A stretch of DNA of 64,000 nucleotides, taken from Armatimonadota bacterium (lineage in GTDB: Bacteria > Armatimonadota > Fimbriimonadia > Fimbriimonadales > GBS-DC). A model generated the notes under the pieces. The model worked only from the letters and a program-made list of their open reading frames with translations. It was not told the origin of the DNA and made no database searches. Position 1 is the first letter of the stretch, and the number at the start of each line of letters is the position of its first letter. Below are positions 26,589-34,420 of the stretch, piece after piece. Made by a program: the position numbers and the translations under genes. The stretch is from NCBI GenBank assembly GCA_037445735.1, contig JBBIJY010000014.1, positions 20,297 to 84,296 on the forward strand. Reading direction: 5' to 3'.

Positions 26589-27398
26589 ATGCGCCAGAGA
26601 GCCTTTACCTTGATTGAGTTGCTGGTTGTGATAGCAATCATCGCCATTTTAGCGGCGATGCTGTTCCCGGTGTTCGCGCAATCGCGCGAATCGGCGCGTC
26701 AGGTGGTCTGCATGAGCAACCTGAAGCAGATTGGCAGCGCGATGCGGCTCTATCTCACCGATTACGACGAGATGTGGTTCCCCGCCTTCACCAGCGAGCG
26801 ATTGCCTGGCTATCCGAACCCTTACAAGCCGTGGCTGGGGTTCGACACCACCAACGCGGCACCGATCGGCTGTTTCTATGGCGACACCACCCAGCCCGCG
26901 CGCCGACCGCCCCGAACAGGCATTATTGACCCCTATCTGAAAGATGAGGGGGTCAAACGCTGTCCCAGCATGCCCTCGATGTGGCAGACCGCGTATGTCA
27001 TCAACTGGTTCCACTCAAACTATAACTCGCCCTACTATGCGCGCAACCCCAACGCGCGGGGCAACGAATACAGCCCCGCGGTCAAGCAATTTAACTCGTT
27101 CAACTGCACCTGTCTGCCCGCGCCCGACGCGGAGGTGGAGGAGCCGTCTCGCACGCTGATGATGTGGGAGCATGGCTATCGCACGCCGCTGTGCAACTGG
27201 CTTCAGCAGGCGGACTGGCCGCTGCGCGGGCTGGAGTGGCAGCAGGGTCCGCCGCGCATTCCCGCCTATATGGACCACTTCCATTTCCTGCATCGTGCGG
27301 GCGCCAGCACGCTCTGGGCGGATGGACACGCGCGACGGATGCTCTATGACCAGCTGCGCCGCCCGATGTTCTCCGCTAAAAAGAGCATCTATCAATAA
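26589..27398 (+). CDS. Prepilin-type N-terminal cleavage/methylation, DUF1559/H-X9-DG family protein
   Basis: [39 protein letters not shown]. Confidence 0.9.
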
Positions 27399-27400
27399 GC

Positions 27401-27436
27401 AAAAGCCCCCGCCTCGCTGCTAAGGGAGACGGGGGC
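27401..27436 (-). terminator. Intrinsic terminator between convergent genes
   Basis: gcccccg...cgggggc stem flanked by AAAA, which is a U-tract on the minus strand. Confidence 0.5.
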
Positions 27437-27458
27437 ACAAGCGCGGCTCGCAACCCGC

Positions 27459-28121
27459 TTATGATTTACGCCGACGCAGGCGCAGGAAGCCTGCCAGACC
27501 CGCGCCTAACGCCAGCAGGCTCGCCGGCTCCGGCACCGCGTAGCGGAACAGAATCATGTCATATGGCTGTTGCAGGCGTGAGCCGGGAATATTTTGCCAG
27601 ATTGGGGTTAGAGCAGGCATGCCGCCATAATTGGTGGGCAAGCCGAATCCGGCGAGGGCGGTGCCTGCAACCGCTGGCGACCACGCATTGCTGCTGTTGG
27701 CAGCAGCAATCCAGCTGCTCACGGTCGACTGGTTCGGCATATAGTAGTCGTTTGGCGGCGGATAGTTGCCAATCCACACCGCTTCCCAGCCGCTGCCAGG
27801 AGTGATGGGCACATAGGGACCGCTTCCTATCTTCACATAGCCGCCCAGTCCCCAAACGGCTGCCCCGATGTCCCGGGCGACTACATACAGGTAGTCGGTC
27901 GTGCCGGCGCTGAAGGTGTAGTTGGCGGCGGTACCCCAGCCCAGAACTCCGCCGATGTAGGTCAGCGACGCACCTGAAGCATCACCCACATACAGGTCGT
28001 ACTGGTCGTCAGCCGACATCCATACATTCAGACCCACGGCGTGCAGAGCCGAGAGGCTCAGCGTTAGCGCAATCAACAATCCCGCAACTTTGAGCCGCAC
28101 ACCTGTGTTGGTTCGGTTCAT
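27459..28121 (-). CDS. PEP-CTERM sorting-domain surface protein
   Basis: Signal peptide; C-terminal VPEPASLLALGAGLAGFLRLRRRKS; GAGGAGG RBS. Confidence 0.9.
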   Translation of the reverse strand: MNRTNTGVRLKVAGLLIALTLSLSALHAVGLNVWMSADDQYDLYVGDASGASLTYIGGVLGWGTAANYTFSAGTTDYLYVVARDIGAAVWGLGGYVKIGSGPYVPITPGSGWEAVWIGNYPPPNDYYMPNQSTVSSWIAAANSSNAWSPAVAGTALAGFGLPTNYGGMPALTPIWQNIPGSRLQQPYDMILFRYAVPEPASLLALGAGLAGFLRLRRRKS

Positions 28122-28221
28122 CTCATAGACCTCCTCTTTGTTATACCACATGGCTGACAAAAAAATGGCTGACAAAAAAGTCAAGGCCCCCGTTCGGTTC
28201 ATCTCATAGACCTCCTCTTTG
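28111..28221. repeat. 30-bp direct repeat (RBS plus first codons) enclosing a 2x15-bp tandem repeat
   Basis: gttcggttcatctcatagacctcctctttg at 28111-28140 and 28192-28221; atggctgacaaaaaa x2 at 28150-28179. Confidence 0.9.
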
Positions 28222-28365
28222 GTGATAGGACCCACCCCATGTGCTTGCAGGTGCGTCCGATATACAGCCTGTAAAGCAACTTTCATGCCAGAGCCGACAG
28301 GCACGAGCGCCTACTCTTTAAATGACTCGAAAAACCCCCAGAAGCGGACATCGAAGAGGTCGAAA

Positions 28366-30066: not shown

Positions 30067-31656
30067 TCAGTGACCCTTCCGCAGGATTCTGCCAGCGCGG
30101 TTGCCAGTGAACTGCCCGTCGCGCAGCACCCAGCGCCCGTTGAGGATGAGATGCACCACGCCTTCGGACAGCTGATGCGGCTCGCGGAAGGTGGCACGGT
30201 CGGCGATGCGGGCATCATCGAACACCACTATGTCGGCATATGCGCCTGGATGCAGGGTGCCGCGATCCGTGAGTCCCAGTCGGGCAGCGGGCAAACCTGT
30301 CATTTTGAAGATGGCTTCTTGCAGGGTCAGCAGTCGCTCTTCGCGCACATAGCGTCGGATCACGCGCGGGAAAGTGCCATAACTGCGCGGGTGAGGGCGT
30401 TCCGCGCTCATCTTCTGCGGGTCATAGCCGACACCATCGGAGCCAATCATCGTGAGCGGGTAGCGCAGCACCGTGCGCAGGTCATCCTCACTCAGATTGA
30501 AGCAGGCGACGCCCACATAGAGACCATGCTCCAGCAGCAGGTCAATCACGAACTCTTCGGGCGATTGATTGGCAGCGGCGGCGGCTTCCGCAACGGTCAG
30601 CCCCTGCAGGGATCGATTGCCTGCCACTGAGCCAATCATGATGCTGTTCCAGTCGTCGTGCCGCTCGCGCATCTCCTGCACGATGCGTTCGCGGGTTGCG
30701 GGGTCGCGCAGGCGCTCGTACACTGCCTGTGGCTCGCCGTTCAGTACCCAGCTTGGCAGGCAGGCGACGCCCATCGAAGTCTGGTACGCCGTGTAGGGGT
30801 AGACATCGAGCATCACATCCAGCCCCTGCTTGACCGAATCGGAGACCCTCTGCAGCGTTTGCTTGACCTTGCCCCAGTTGGCGCGTCCTTCGGCTTTGTG
30901 GTGCGATAGCTGCAGGGGCAGTTCGGCGCGTTCGGCAATCTCGATGGCTTCCGCCACGCTCTCAATCAGGTGGTCGCCCTCGCTGCGCAGGTGGGTGGCG
31001 TAGAACCCGCCGTACTGCGCCGCGACCGTCGCCAGCTCAATCAGCTCCTGCGTGTCGGCGTAGCAGCCGGGCACATACTCCAGCCCGGTGGAGAGTCCCC
31101 ACGCGCCCGCCTCCATGCAGGTCGCCACCTCACGCTTCATCGCTTCGAGTTCGGCAGGCGTGGGACGACGCTGGTCGAAGCCCATCACTTTCTTGCGCAG
31201 TGTGCCATGCGCACACAGGAAAATCACATTGGTGCCGACGCCGCGCTCTTCCAGCTGGCGCAGATGCTCGTCGAAACTGTTCCAGTTGACCTCCGCACCG
31301 TAGGGCTTGAGCCAGCGCTGCTCCTGCTGGAAGATGGGGGTGGTGTCGGTTTGAGCGACACCCAGCCCGCAGTTGCCGACCACCTGCGTGCCCACCCCCT
31401 GATACAGCACGCTCAGCTGTTCAGGATGGTGCGGCAGGGAGAAGTCGGAATGCGTGTGGATGTCGATGAAGGCGGGCGCCACGCATAGACCCGCCACATC
31501 CACCACCATGCCCGCCTCCCAGTCGTCCAGCGCGCCCATCGCGACGATTCGGTCGTCCCGAATGGCAATATCTCCCCGCTGAGCGGGCGCGCCTGTGCCG
31601 TCATAGAGCGTGCCACCGCGCAGCAGGAGGTCGCAACGCCGATGAACCAGTTGCAT
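30067..31656 (-). CDS. N-acyl-D-amino-acid deacylase (amidohydrolase)
   Basis: PAFIDIHTHSD, GNCG, GLSTGLEY, THLRSE, SHHK, GSDG, HPRSYGTFPR. Confidence 0.9.
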   Translation of the reverse strand: MQLVHRRCDLLLRGGTLYDGTGAPAQRGDIAIRDDRIVAMGALDDWEAGMVVDVAGLCVAPAFIDIHTHSDFSLPHHPEQLSVLYQGVGTQVVGNCGLGVAQTDTTPIFQQEQRWLKPYGAEVNWNSFDEHLRQLEERGVGTNVIFLCAHGTLRKKVMGFDQRRPTPAELEAMKREVATCMEAGAWGLSTGLEYVPGCYADTQELIELATVAAQYGGFYATHLRSEGDHLIESVAEAIEIAERAELPLQLSHHKAEGRANWGKVKQTLQRVSDSVKQGLDVMLDVYPYTAYQTSMGVACLPSWVLNGEPQAVYERLRDPATRERIVQEMRERHDDWNSIMIGSVAGNRSLQGLTVAEAAAAANQSPEEFVIDLLLEHGLYVGVACFNLSEDDLRTVLRYPLTMIGSDGVGYDPQKMSAERPHPRSYGTFPRVIRRYVREERLLTLQEAIFKMTGLPAARLGLTDRGTLHPGAYADIVVFDDARIADRATFREPHQLSEGVVHLILNGRWVLRDGQFTGNRAGRILRKGH

Positions 31657-31689: not shown

Positions 31690-32106
31690 TCAACCCTGCA
31701 CACAGCGCAGGTGAACCCAGCCGCGGTTGGCATCGCGGGTGATGGGTTCGCCGACGGCAATCGTCTGGCGGCAGATGCGGCAGAAGCCCTCATAGCGGGC
31801 GGGGATACTGTGCTGAACGGGAGCGTTCATGCAGTCCACATGCACCCAGCGCCCACTTCGAGCGTGGCGCGTGATCAGCGCACCCTGTTGAATCGGTTGC
31901 AGGCAGGCGGGGCAGGTGCCCTCATAGCGAGCAAAGAGCAGCGGTGCACCCGCTTCCAGCAACTGCTCGTGTTGCTCCGTCAACAGGGCGAGCAGCTCAC
32001 TGGCAAGGAGATCGATCTCTATAACCGACTCGTTCGATACGCGCGGAGGCGACTGATCTGGTTTGCCCTGCTCGACCCAGCGGCGATTTTCCGGGATTGG
32101 CTTCAT
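31690..32106 (-). CDS. Small protein with two tandem CxxC...HxxC zinc-finger-like repeats (gene 4 of the ubiquitination-like operon)
   Basis: ARYEGTCPAC...WVHVDC and ARYEGFCRIC...WVHLRC; ATGA overlap with the E1 stop. Confidence 0.75.
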   Translation of the reverse strand: MKPIPENRRWVEQGKPDQSPPRVSNESVIEIDLLASELLALLTEQHEQLLEAGAPLLFARYEGTCPACLQPIQQGALITRHARSGRWVHVDCMNAPVQHSIPARYEGFCRICRQTIAVGEPITRDANRGWVHLRCVQG

Positions 32107-33590
32107 GCGGGACTCTCCTCCGTGTCGGGGGATGGCGCTTCGCTTCGGGGTCGTGGTGCGGGCGGCGCCTTCTGGCGGGGCGGCTTCAGGTAGCCACTGA
32201 TGCCGTCCAGCCCGGTTGCCAGCAGGCTACCCGCCTCGCAGGAGCAGAGGAAGCAGCTCGGATTGCGTTCGGCTTCGGCGGGGAACGCCTGCTGCGCCAC
32301 CAGGTCGTAATAGACATACGGCTGCGCGGGCAGGCAGCCCGTGGTCAGCTTCACGAACTCCCACACCAGCAGGTTCGCCACGACGCCGTTCAGGAACACC
32401 ACCTGCGGGTTGGGTATCCGCTCGCCCTGAATGTAGCCGTGCTGGATCGACATGGCACGCTGTTCGGGCGTGAGCTGCTCTTCCACGCTCTGGCGCACCA
32501 GATGCCCGACACAGCTGAGGCAGGCGGTCTCGCCCGGCAGGATGAGCTGCACCTGTCCGCCGCCCTGCGCGATGCGTCCCGCCTCCGCGCGTATGCCGAC
32601 GCCCGCGTCCAGATAGGGGATCAGCGCGCACACCGCCACCAGGTTCAAATACTGGCGCACGGTCGCGCTGTCCACCGCGCCGATCAGCACATCGCTTTCG
32701 AGCAGGGTGGTCAGCAGTTCGGGCGAGCGCGCATCGGCGGGCAGGGGCATGATGGTGCGCCATTCGGGGCTGCGAGCACGATTGAACCAGAGTGCGAGCG
32801 CCTTCACCTTGCGCCAGCGCCGAATCGCGCGATACCAGGTGGCGCCCACGATACGGTTCAGATTGCTCAGCTCCAGTCGGTCGGGGTCGATCAGCGTCAG
32901 ATGCCCGACGCCGAGCAGGGTGAGCGCCTGCGCAATCTGGGAGCCAAGCCCGCCCGCGCCCACAATCGCCACGCGCAGGTGGCTCAACAGCGCCTGACCC
33001 TCCACACCGAGCGCGCGCACCTGACGGTCGTACAGCTCCCGCTGGGCTTTGTCCAGCTCCGGCGGTGCAAGGTCAGTCGCATAGCGCATCTCGCAGGGCA
33101 GCCCCACGATGCGGATATGCTCAATCGGCACCACCTGCTGATTCACATAGTCCCACATGTGCCCGTCGAAGCCCATGTCGGAGCCGAACACCAGCGTGCC
33201 ATGCCGAAACGGGGGCGACAGCACCTCGGTGACGCGGAACTTCTGATAGTCGCTCTGGTGATCAATCGAGGAGAAGCGCGGTTGAGGCGTCCACGGATGG
33301 GAGTGGGCTTCCAGCAGCGACCAGCCCTCCGCTTCACAGCGCGTCAGCAGGGCATGCACGAACTCCGGGCGGGTGATGACGCGACTGGCGGAGCGCTCCT
33401 CGTAGGCGTCCGGCGGCACCTCCACCAGCTCGCGCACAAGGAACACCGCTCGCCCTGGCAGCTCCAGCGTGCGACACAGCATGAAGCACTTCGTCTCGAC
33501 ACAGCGGTCAGCGAGAAGCGCTTCGGTGAGGCGCGTCCAGAGCGTGCGCGTGATGCGTACCTCGCCACACAGAGCTTGCAACGGCTCCAC
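32103..33590 (-). CDS. JAB/JAMM peptidase fused to a ThiF/E1 adenylyltransferase
   Basis: JAB: E...HSHP-x6-SSID; E1: IVGAGGLGS, DPDRLELSNLNR, AVDS, LDAG, CLSC...HGY...CFLC. Confidence 0.9.
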   Translation of the reverse strand: MEPLQALCGEVRITRTLWTRLTEALLADRCVETKCFMLCRTLELPGRAVFLVRELVEVPPDAYEERSASRVITRPEFVHALLTRCEAEGWSLLEAHSHPWTPQPRFSSIDHQSDYQKFRVTEVLSPPFRHGTLVFGSDMGFDGHMWDYVNQQVVPIEHIRIVGLPCEMRYATDLAPPELDKAQRELYDRQVRALGVEGQALLSHLRVAIVGAGGLGSQIAQALTLLGVGHLTLIDPDRLELSNLNRIVGATWYRAIRRWRKVKALALWFNRARSPEWRTIMPLPADARSPELLTTLLESDVLIGAVDSATVRQYLNLVAVCALIPYLDAGVGIRAEAGRIAQGGGQVQLILPGETACLSCVGHLVRQSVEEQLTPEQRAMSIQHGYIQGERIPNPQVVFLNGVVANLLVWEFVKLTTGCLPAQPYVYYDLVAQQAFPAEAERNPSCFLCSCEAGSLLATGLDGISGYLKPPRQKAPPAPRPRSEAPSPDTEESPA

Positions 33591-33593
33591 TCC

Positions 33594-34043
33594 CTATCCG
33601 CGTCGCCAGCGTTCAAACGCCTTCTTAATGAGTTCGCAAACGCTCAGCAGGGAATGCCCTGCCAGCGGGTTCGCTGCAGGGTGCCACTCGTGGATATGCA
33701 GGCAGCAGGCGGTCCAGCCCTTCAGTGCCGGCGGCGCCTCACGGAACTGACCCCGATTGGGGTCATAGGAGGTGTCGCCGTAGAACACATGGGGCGGACG
33801 CTGCCCGTTCGCTAAGCGCAGGTTGTAATCCACATAGAACCAGTCGGGTGGGGTCTGGGGGTAGTGACGCGGCAGCAGGATCAGCACATCAGTGGTGGTG
33901 TAGTTGTAGCCACGGGGGAGCGGGAAGTCGTGAATGATGACCCACTCCCCGTCCTCGTCGTCATAGGAGGCTTGCTTCGTCTGCGAGTAGTGCGTCGCAG
34001 CGAGCGCCGCCTCGTAGGCGATCCGCTGCAGGCGTGTGTTCAT
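33594..34043 (-). CDS. Prokaryotic E2/UBC-fold protein (family E-like)
   Basis: WVIIHDFPLPRGYN...DVLILLPRHYPQTPPDWFYV; WTACCLHIHEWHP; 3 nt from the E1 start. Confidence 0.85.
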   Translation of the reverse strand: MNTRLQRIAYEAALAATHYSQTKQASYDDEDGEWVIIHDFPLPRGYNYTTTDVLILLPRHYPQTPPDWFYVDYNLRLANGQRPPHVFYGDTSYDPNRGQFREAPPALKGWTACCLHIHEWHPAANPLAGHSLLSVCELIKKAFERWRRG

Positions 34044-34073
34044 GGTGTCATCCCCGTGACAGCGATCCAGGGC

Positions 34074-34274
34074 TTAGCCGATACCGTCCTCCCAGCGCGG
34101 CAGCTCGGTGACGGCGGGTGCGCGGCGCACCACTTCCTGCGGCGTGGTCGGCTGAGATGGAGTGATCGGCGTGTTCAGCGTGGTCGGGTCGTTCGTGGTC
34201 GCAGGCGTCAGCGTAATCTCATAGTCGATGCCGTTCAGGCGAACCTTTTCCTTAACCGCGTTACCTGTTGGCAT
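34074..34274 (-). CDS. 66-aa putative ubiquitin-like modifier precursor
   Basis: GAGGTG RBS and GGGG-TATAAT upstream; first gene before E2 and JAB-E1; ends PRWEDG-IG. Confidence 0.65.
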   Translation of the reverse strand: MPTGNAVKEKVRLNGIDYEITLTPATTNDPTTLNTPITPSQPTTPQEVVRRAPAVTELPRWEDGIG

Positions 34275-34292
34275 ATGGAACACCTCACCCCT

Positions 34293-34315
34293 ATTATACC
34301 CCAAACCTCTGTCAA
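34293..34315 (-). promoter_or_regulatory. Putative sigma70-type promoter of the ubiquitination-like operon
   Basis: Minus strand TTGACA-gaggtttgggg-TATAAT; the -10 is perfect, but the 11-nt spacer is non-canonical. Confidence 0.55.
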
Positions 34316-34420
34316 GAGTTCCCTGCAAAGGGGAGAAAAAATCCCGTTTCGCCTCCCAGAGGCATCGATAAAGCAGGAAAAGGGTGGCTGGCTGACGAAT
34401 CATCCACACTGTGAGGTGAG

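Follow-up and report, generated by a model that had tools for sequence, protein, structure and literature searches.

Which process is served by a bacterial operon that combines activating (E1) and conjugating (E2) enzymes of the ubiquitin type with a peptide of only 66 residues? The question is raised by a 64,000-nucleotide stretch of DNA (the window) from an Armatimonadota bacterium (Fimbriimonadales; GBS-DC; assembly GCA_037445735.1, contig JBBIJY010000014.1, positions 20,297-84,296), in which the operon occupies positions 31690-34315; unless stated otherwise, coordinates are those of the window. We conclude that the operon probably encodes a relative of Type I Bub that is fixed in the chromosome, conjugates a peptide and has a regulatory or quality-control role rather than an antiphage one. 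It is distinguished by a peptide modifier that is not a beta-grasp protein, a likely relay from tyrosine to cysteine, partner proteins headed by a short motif that replace BubE, and vertical inheritance within one family.

Operon structure and enzymes

The operon consists of four head-to-tail open reading frames (ORFs) on the minus strand, in the order 66-residue peptide, E2, JAB-E1 and zinc-finger protein. An earlier reading of the same DNA from its letters alone (the sequence-only reading) had described four tightly packed minus-strand genes, and the ORF coordinates confirm this: 30 nucleotides lie between the peptide and E2 genes and 3 nucleotides between the E2 and JAB-E1 genes, while the JAB-E1 and zinc-finger genes overlap by 4 nucleotides. 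The features are as follows.

34293-34322, minus strand: promoter-like region, with GGAAC (34318-34322), a 19-nucleotide spacer and TATAAT (34293-34298)
34074-34274, minus strand: modifier precursor, 66 amino acids; predicted hairpin (residues 7-22), Pro/Thr-rich coil, LPRWEDG (G64) and IG tail
33594-34043, minus strand: E2-like conjugating enzyme of the Prok-E2_E/BubB type, 149 amino acids; candidate triad D67/C114/H116
32103-33590, minus strand: whole JAB-E1 fusion as called among the ORFs, 495 amino acids, GTG start
33096-33590, minus strand: JAB/JAMM peptidase domain of the fusion, residues about 1-165; E32, H96, H98, S107, D110
32103-33095, minus strand: ThiF-type E1 adenylation domain of the fusion, residues about 175-470; GxGxxG, R246, Y386, C357/C360/C446/C449 and a Pro-rich C-terminal tail
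31690-32106, minus strand: zinc-finger protein, 138 amino acids; N-terminal motif, acidic helix of low confidence and two repeats ARYxGxCxxC...WVHxxC with one zinc site each

Both enzymes have their best solved matches among the Bub proteins of Citrobacter: BubCD for the fusion (residues 12-425, E 3.5e-24) and BubB for the E2 (E 2.1e-6 by sequence, E 1.6e-9 by profile), in agreement with the proposal of a Bub-related variant. In Pfam, the fusion scored 123.7 bits with ThiF (cut-off 28.1), and the E2, which is the sole Prok-E2_E (PF14462) gene in the genome, scored 52.1 bits (cut-off 25). Two of the three family matches that had been suggested as a check were therefore obtained, but the third, Prok-JAB, reached only 13.8 bits on the fusion, under its cut-off of 25. 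Nevertheless, the JAMM motif had rightly been called intact: E32, H96-x-H98, S107 and D110 align one-to-one with the metal site of BubCD. The aligned pairs are E32/E28, H96/H91, H98/H93, D110/D104, R246/R227 and Y386/Y370 (fusion/BubCD; BubCD positions were counted from the alignment, and the chain is numbered 2 higher than in the paper). The JAB residues, the GxGxxG motif, the arginine of NLNR (R246), Y386 and the four cysteines C357/C360/C446/C449 are invariant in 16 of 16 E1s, and with them the ATP and zinc motifs expected of a ThiF domain. Y386 sits in GYIQGE, and the only invariant cysteines nearby are the CxxC zinc ligands. BubCD does not have the four CxxC...CxxC cysteines at the aligned positions.

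With its zinc cysteines, the ThiF domain is similar to MoeB and ThiF, as it would be in a ThiS/MoaD-type sulfur-carrier pathway running through this enzyme. We consider such a pathway highly improbable, as did the sequence-only reading. All NCBIfam ThiF/MoeB models scored well under their cut-offs (e.g. 69.9 vs. 275 bits), a second ThiF-family gene elsewhere in the genome is stronger (279.8 bits), and none of the 10 flanking ORFs had a Pfam match that would make it a thiamine or molybdopterin gene. Moreover, the operon contains an E2 and a JAB domain, and its peptide is not predicted to be beta-grasp and carries a single Gly with a cleavable tail instead of a Gly-Gly end.

The E2 of Bub uses Ser333, His335 and Asp299 as catalytic residues (Ye et al., PMC11601596). 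D67 of the E2 described here aligns directly to the position of BubB D299, all 14 aligned E2s keep D67 and H116, and C114 falls in the same column of that alignment as the Ser of Ser-x-His relatives. In 33 close E2 homologues this column holds Cys in 28 and Ser in four, with one fragment unmatched. A profile search over 1.84 billion representatives recovered 876 relatives at E <= 0.001. Of the best 150, Cys stands at this position in 80 and Ser in 57; 10 are gapped there and three carry a different residue. Cys is thus frequent in the superfamily, so Cys114 is unusual only in comparison with the characterised, DUF6527-linked Bub operons; the sequence-only reading had correctly identified a Cys-type E2, but not one that is exceptional in its superfamily. 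The two nearest outgroup loci with a peptide-type modifier (L069 and L070) encode Ser-type E2s, while the E1 Tyr is invariant in both. Since the Fimbriimonadales E2s have Cys, the nucleophile has switched within one system type.

The modifier peptide

The peptide ends in LPRWEDGIG. A large protein collection holds 53 members of its family, all of them without a Pfam domain, and every named one is a 'hypothetical' protein. The motif LPx[WC][EQ]DG is present in 49 members, in which the motif Gly is followed by 1-6 variable residues (48 members) or is itself the last residue (one member). The other four comprise one variant (…NWKDGGY) and three apparently truncated or frameshifted sequences. A conserved motif with a variable tail is the pattern expected of a processed precursor, and the two-residue IG tail is predicted to be cleaved off after G64. 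One member of the family comes from a different phylum (Thermoflexus hugenholtzii, E 6.9e-4). The ratio of nonsynonymous to synonymous substitution rates was 0.04-0.51 in 8 of 8 pairs tested, indicating purifying selection and therefore a real coding gene, and conservation spans the whole peptide, including two lysines of the predicted hairpin.

The modifier had been called atypical, and the structure prediction upholds this. AlphaFold, using an alignment of 20 sequences, modelled a hairpin (residues 7-13 and 16-22) with the remainder as coil, the only other regular structure being a few helical residues near the C-terminus (mean predicted local distance difference test, pLDDT, 73.7; predicted template modelling score 0.28). 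The composition is unusual as well, with 9 Pro and 12 Thr in 66 residues. No member of the family matched a ubiquitin-type Pfam family, ESM Atlas returned no usable match for the peptide, and in hhalign comparisons of the peptide family with three beta-grasp modifiers from related operons only the hairpin aligned, with a probability of 0.5%. As judged from these comparisons, descent of the peptide from ubiquitin-like proteins (Ubls) is neither shown nor excluded, and a fold induced by binding is possible.

The complex of the full E1 fusion with peptide residues 1-64 was also modelled. It scored 0.75 (0.78, 0.75 and 0.58 in the individual runs), a mark that solved complexes attained in 58 of 80 cases and mismatched pairs in 2 of 110, and the best of three controls scored 0.00. 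Partner pLDDT was at least 51 and contact agreement between runs at least 0%. In the model, peptide residues 50-64 contact E1 residues 32, 34, 69-86, 94, 96, 98, 107, 109-110, 113 and 116-117, that is, the JAB active site. A tail placed in this site fits trimming after Gly64, comparable to the cut that the BubCD peptidase makes in BubAB after a conserved Gly (PMC11601596).

These properties of the peptide can be read in another way. It could be a precursor from which a ribosomally synthesised peptide product is made; in that case its C-terminus would be activated by the ThiF domain for chemical modification, in the manner of MccB-type enzymes, a follower sequence would be cut off by JAB, and protein tagging would not take place. 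The small size, the Pro/Thr-rich composition and the conserved core with its variable C-terminal follower agree with such a precursor, and the solved structures that match the E1 more weakly include MccB and PaaA (E about 2e-5). However, the nearest enzymes are the conjugating BubCD and BubB and not MccB, a BubB-type E2 with the conserved Asp/Cys/His set is always adjacent, and no transporter or immunity gene recurs beside the operon. Conservation over the whole peptide, with the two hairpin lysines, also argues against a precursor, and we regard this explanation as improbable.

The zinc-finger protein and the PIPxNRRW motif

The fourth gene had been described as encoding an extra Cys/His protein. 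Such a protein is indeed encoded there, but it is not an addition to the Bub gene set, because its gene occupies the place that bubE (DUF6527) has in Bub operons. DUF6527 matched none of the four operon proteins (E up to 1) and none of 17 zinc-finger homologues, and it was not found in the window's own genome (99.2% complete), while the same search did detect it in a control genome. The zinc-finger family comprises 65 proteins; none is named beyond 'hypothetical protein', and only one has a Pfam assignment, a zf-Vps39_C annotation. No Pfam family exceeded its cut-off with the operon's protein, the closest being zf-ANAPC11 (24.4 bits, cut-off 25) and DUF2175 (24.1 bits, cut-off 25.1). When 17 homologues were compared with RING-type families, zf-ANAPC11 was matched by four and Prok-RING_1 by four (E 0.022 or worse). 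Two repeats are present in 15 of the 17 aligned proteins and one repeat in the two from a single genus (L034, L036).

AlphaFold (pLDDT 77 for the model) predicted two separate 41-residue zinc modules after a helix of low confidence. The fold matches of these modules were weak and included the ZNRF1 RING (Z 4.9) as well as PHD, Csf1, C1 and PARP fingers; ESM Atlas placed the zinc-finger part in unnamed clusters alone (0.91). These results, which concern a predicted model, show neither a new fold nor an E3 enzyme.

Fingers aside, the protein is best conserved at its N-terminus, M(A)KPIPxNRRW. With a back-translated PIPxNRRW pattern, 20 of the family's 29 genomes gave sites, 26 in all; a reversed-pattern control gave none. 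The motif starts within 4 residues of the Met at the 22 sites for which a Met could be assigned, and the printed translations of the other four begin at the motif. Fingers are present in 22 of the PIPxNRRW proteins, while the other four have a hydrophobic segment and no finger; two of these four are encoded directly after the zinc-finger gene (L096, L099) and two are unlinked. The linked two, from the same genus (L096, G001:C4; L099, G003:C120), are each a fifth gene after the operon and encode a PIPPNRRW-headed product with a hydrophobic segment and a tail of acidic repeats. One of the unlinked two is a 96-amino acid ORF of the window's own genome (G000:C22:35766-36056); it starts with M-A-R-P-I-P-T-N-R-R-W and continues with a hydrophobic membrane-type segment, and a sister genome has its ortholog (L106). 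The fourth genes of the L069 and L070 loci likewise encode an IPxNRR start followed by a membrane-type segment.

The E1 ends in KPIP[APT]PR in 9 of 14 cases, a few codons before the start of the zinc-finger gene, and this tail resembles the N-terminus of the zinc-finger protein. PIPxNRRW might be a docking handle, possibly one that rivals the E1 tail for a single site, although this is our inference only. The lysine of the motif was considered as a universal acceptor site and dropped, as its position is K, R, Q or E depending on the protein.

Distribution and genomic context

The E2 was found in 25 of the 61 genomes searched, the window's own counted: in 24 of 28 other genomes of the window's family, at 69-99% identity, and in 0 of 32 genomes of the four other families of the order. 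Of 401 genomes sampled evenly from the phylum, the peptide profile matched 3, each of them in the window's family. The named homologues come from metagenome-assembled Fimbriimonadales (Armatimonadota) genomes, several of which have isolate names that we take to be of hot-spring style.

Co-occurrence of the genes in other genomes had been proposed as a check, and it was found: in 13 of 18 fetched loci the peptide, E2, E1 and zinc-finger genes occur in the same order. Three further loci (L028, L034, L036) have the peptide, E2 and zinc-finger genes without an E1, and two (L029, L032) lack the zinc-finger gene as well. The JAB-E1 gene of one genus occurs alone on another contig and encodes a Lys/Arg-rich tail (L076, L077). 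Since some genomes have a second peptide-E2 copy without an adjacent E1, and an E1 can lie alone on another contig, one E1 may serve several peptide-E2 modules. When ORFs of at least 80 amino acids from 21 stretches were clustered, no gene besides the four of the operon recurred beside it, and the acs and amidohydrolase neighbours are common only to the closest genome (L021). The operon looks as if it has been inherited vertically within one Fimbriimonadales family, amid varying housekeeping genes.

This distribution bears on whether the same chemistry serves antiphage or stress defence, as in Bil and, by proposal, in Bub, so that phage proteins would be tagged in infection. Bub operons are often located in mobile elements and beside CapW or CapH and CapP regulators (PMC11601596). 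The E1 gave partial matches to the E1-E2 models of PADLOC (best E 8.3e-17), and the extra peptide-E2 copies of some genomes could mean diversification. Against this, PADLOC had no match for the peptide or the E2, one at E 0.053 for the zinc-finger protein, and none for any of the 10 flanking ORFs. Eight of these ORFs belong to ordinary families of Pfam (AccA, AccD, pilin-like, PEP-CTERM, CN hydrolase, amidohydrolase, Acs and SIS), which supports the housekeeping, non-defence context previously ascribed to the locus; one of the other two matches a histidine-kinase-type ATPase domain alone and one has no Pfam match. The flanking ORFs showed no nucleotidyltransferase gene. No further gene recurs beside the operon across loci, and the presence of the E2 in most genomes of the family looks vertical, unlike the patchy spread usual for defence islands. 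A defence role is, in our judgement, unlikely. We consider regulation or quality control the more likely role, because the operon is inherited vertically in one family while its housekeeping flanks vary.

The GC content is 0.60-0.68 in the operon and 0.55-0.65 beside it. The ATG of the peptide gene is internal to its ORF and is immediately preceded by a GAGGTG ribosome-binding site. The TATAAT described in the sequence-only reading is present 18 nucleotides 5' of this ATG, and an exact TATAAT precedes the peptide gene in 14 of 19 loci. By contrast, the adjacent TTGACA is not its canonical partner: a spacer of just 11 nucleotides led us to drop TTGACA/TATAAT as a canonical promoter, and a consensus scan did not find a canonical sigma-70 pair on the operon strand. 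The conserved partner is instead a GGAAC-type motif about 19 nucleotides 5' of TATAAT or of a one-mismatch variant of TATAAT. This motif recurs across genera (the window and 18 related loci were compared) and could be the lineage's form of the promoter or a specific regulatory site. Among the sequencing runs listed for the 2.6-kb operon stretch, four were DNA, all from one study and one perhaps from the source sample, and none was RNA.

Two observations concern the surroundings of the operon. An Amidohydro_3 gene (30067-31656), on the same strand, starts 33 nucleotides past the zinc-finger gene and may be co-transcribed with the operon in the window; the linkage is present only in the closest genome (L021) and not in other genera. 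A few kb from the operon, at 26589-28304, a type IV pilin-like protein (N_methyl motif and DUF1559) is encoded beside a PEP-CTERM protein.

Comparison with Bub and other systems

Type I Bub consists of BubAB, BubCD and BubE and uses oxyester chemistry, and bubE is stated to be part of all Bub operons (PMC11601596). The operon described here resembles Type I Bub (6E.1) in several respects. The JAB domain is fused N-terminally to a homodimer-type E1, with the domain order of BubCD; the crossover-loop Tyr of the E1 is invariant and there is no catalytic Cys; the E2s share a Pfam family and carry Asp and His at corresponding places; and the modifier gene lies immediately 5' of the E2 gene and encodes a Gly at the processing site. 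The differences are equally clear. Modifier and E2 are separate ORFs, here and in all 18 related loci, while BubAB is fused. The modifier is predicted to be a hairpin followed by coil, while the catalogued Bub Ubls all have one to three beta-grasp domains (companion preprint, 10.1101/2024.11.21.623966). The nucleophile column of the E2 holds Cys114 instead of the Ser that forms the oxyester in Bub, the E1 carries a CxxC...CxxC zinc site at positions that hold different residues in BubCD, a tandem zinc-finger protein replaces DUF6527/BubE, and defence-type regulators and a mobile context are missing. Of six Type I features tested, two were present (the JAB-E1 fusion and the Tyr) and four were absent (the Ubl-E2 fusion, the beta-grasp fold, DUF6527 and the Ser of the E2). 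The system would work like Bub but lies outside the defined Bub types (I and II), and the exact match to a described subtype that would have refuted the sequence-only reading was not seen. It does not belong to Bil (Type I/II) either, given its single ThiF domain fused to JAB and its nearest structures, which are BubCD, MoeB and UBA5-type E1s.

The 6e operon type of Iyer et al. (2006, PMC1779556) combines a polyUbl, a Cys-less E2/RWD-like domain, a JAB-E1 and a metal-binding protein, and such zinc-finger proteins were suggested there to choose targets. Type II CBASS (cyclic oligonucleotide-based antiphage signalling system) Cap2/Cap3 also directs an E1/E2-type enzyme and a JAB protein to the C-terminus of a substrate that is not beta-grasp, but CBASS has its E2 and E1 in one fused protein and conjugates the signalling enzyme itself (PMC11601596), whereas here there would be a dedicated 64-amino acid peptide.

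Fully unfused relatives of the operon occur in the Omnitrophota and Planctomycetales (L071-L073). They share the E2 and E1 families and the order modifier, E2, JAB, E1, and have no adjacent DUF6527. They differ in that the E2 is of the Ser type, the JAB-sized gene (no Pfam match) is separate from the gene for a 293-amino acid ThiF E1, and the modifier, of 81-99 amino acids, is Multi_ubiq-like (22.7 bits, cut-off 24.5) and ends in KFKRG (RFRRG in L073).

Two further systems offer partial parallels. Pup is a largely unfolded tag of about 64 amino acids, and the Pup system is chromosomal in a lineage, as the present one is; the difference is that Pup is attached by a glutamine-synthetase-like ligase (PafA), without E1 or E2. 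Two Pup_ligase-family genes (518.5 and 425.2 bits), 2 kb apart, are present in the window's own genome (G000:C3:96409-101112). They are presumably PafA- and Dop-like, so the organism probably has a pupylation system as well, which would coexist with the peptide system. UBA5, a minimal homodimeric E1, lacks a ubiquitin-fold domain and recruits its E2 (UFC1) by means of a short peptide at its C-terminus. By analogy, the KPIP[APT]PR tail of the E1s might have a similar use; we treat this as a lead only. A literature search (Fimbriimonadales with ubiquitin, Prok-E2_E and later Bub types) found no description of this clade; it covered the Bub preprints apart from their supplementary operon tables.

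Discussion

The pathway that we propose would begin with the JAB domain of the fusion, which by homology would trim the 66-residue precursor right after Gly64 of LPRWEDG. The ThiF domain would then adenylate Gly64, and the peptide would be transferred to the crossover-loop Tyr386, the equivalent of BubCD Y370. From there it would pass to Cys114 of the E2, in a putative Asp67/Cys114/His116 triad corresponding to D299/S333/H335 of BubB, so that the relay would run from an oxyester to a thioester. In the last step, the E2-bound peptide would be joined to target proteins. The PIPxNRRW-headed proteins (the operon's zinc finger and the small membrane proteins encoded elsewhere) would dock on this machinery, either as targeting adaptors or as dedicated substrates.

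Several points weigh against this pathway. The label 'Ubl' for the peptide is based on context alone, since beta-grasp homology is undetectable (the hhalign result above). The modelled peptide tail occupies the JAB site and not the adenylation site, partner confidence is low (pLDDT 51), and the three runs may differ in their contacts. The equivalence of C114 and BubB S333 is indirect: both alignments with BubB, that of the single sequence and that of the profile of 14 E2s (positions 31-84), end at residue 84, which leaves the C114 column outside. No significant fold match was obtained for the zinc-finger model (Foldseek best E 0.023; best Z 4.9 among 48,161 chains). Some genomes have peptide-E2 modules without an adjacent E1, or an E1 on its own. 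Finally, the published Bub operons are so far without a phenotype and are suspected to be defence systems (PMC11601596).

With these points taken into account, we still favour a Bub-related peptide-conjugation system with a cellular function. A broader claim can be made only tentatively: that this is the first E1/E2-type pathway with a dedicated modifier that is not beta-grasp but a short peptide with little fold, passing it from a Tyr oxyester to a Cys thioester under the direction of zinc-finger or membrane-anchored proteins with a portable PIPxNRRW handle, for lineage-wide housekeeping tagging beside pupylation. To our knowledge, the bacterial systems of ubiquitin-like conjugation characterised to date lie in mobile, defence-linked operons and use beta-grasp modifiers. 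In this clade, E1/E2 machinery occurs apart from the ubiquitin fold, since the modifier retains no more than a C-terminal tail and a predicted hairpin. The natural Ser (L069, L070) and Cys (Fimbriimonadales) versions of the E2, beside the same Tyr-type E1, provide a handle on the use of oxyesters by Bub, and thermostable parts of the system could serve as a compact peptide-ligation tool. The short N-terminal motif common to the zinc-finger and membrane proteins suggests a simple targeting code. The family is thermophilic, and the operon's vertical conservation within it favours a cellular over an antiviral role.

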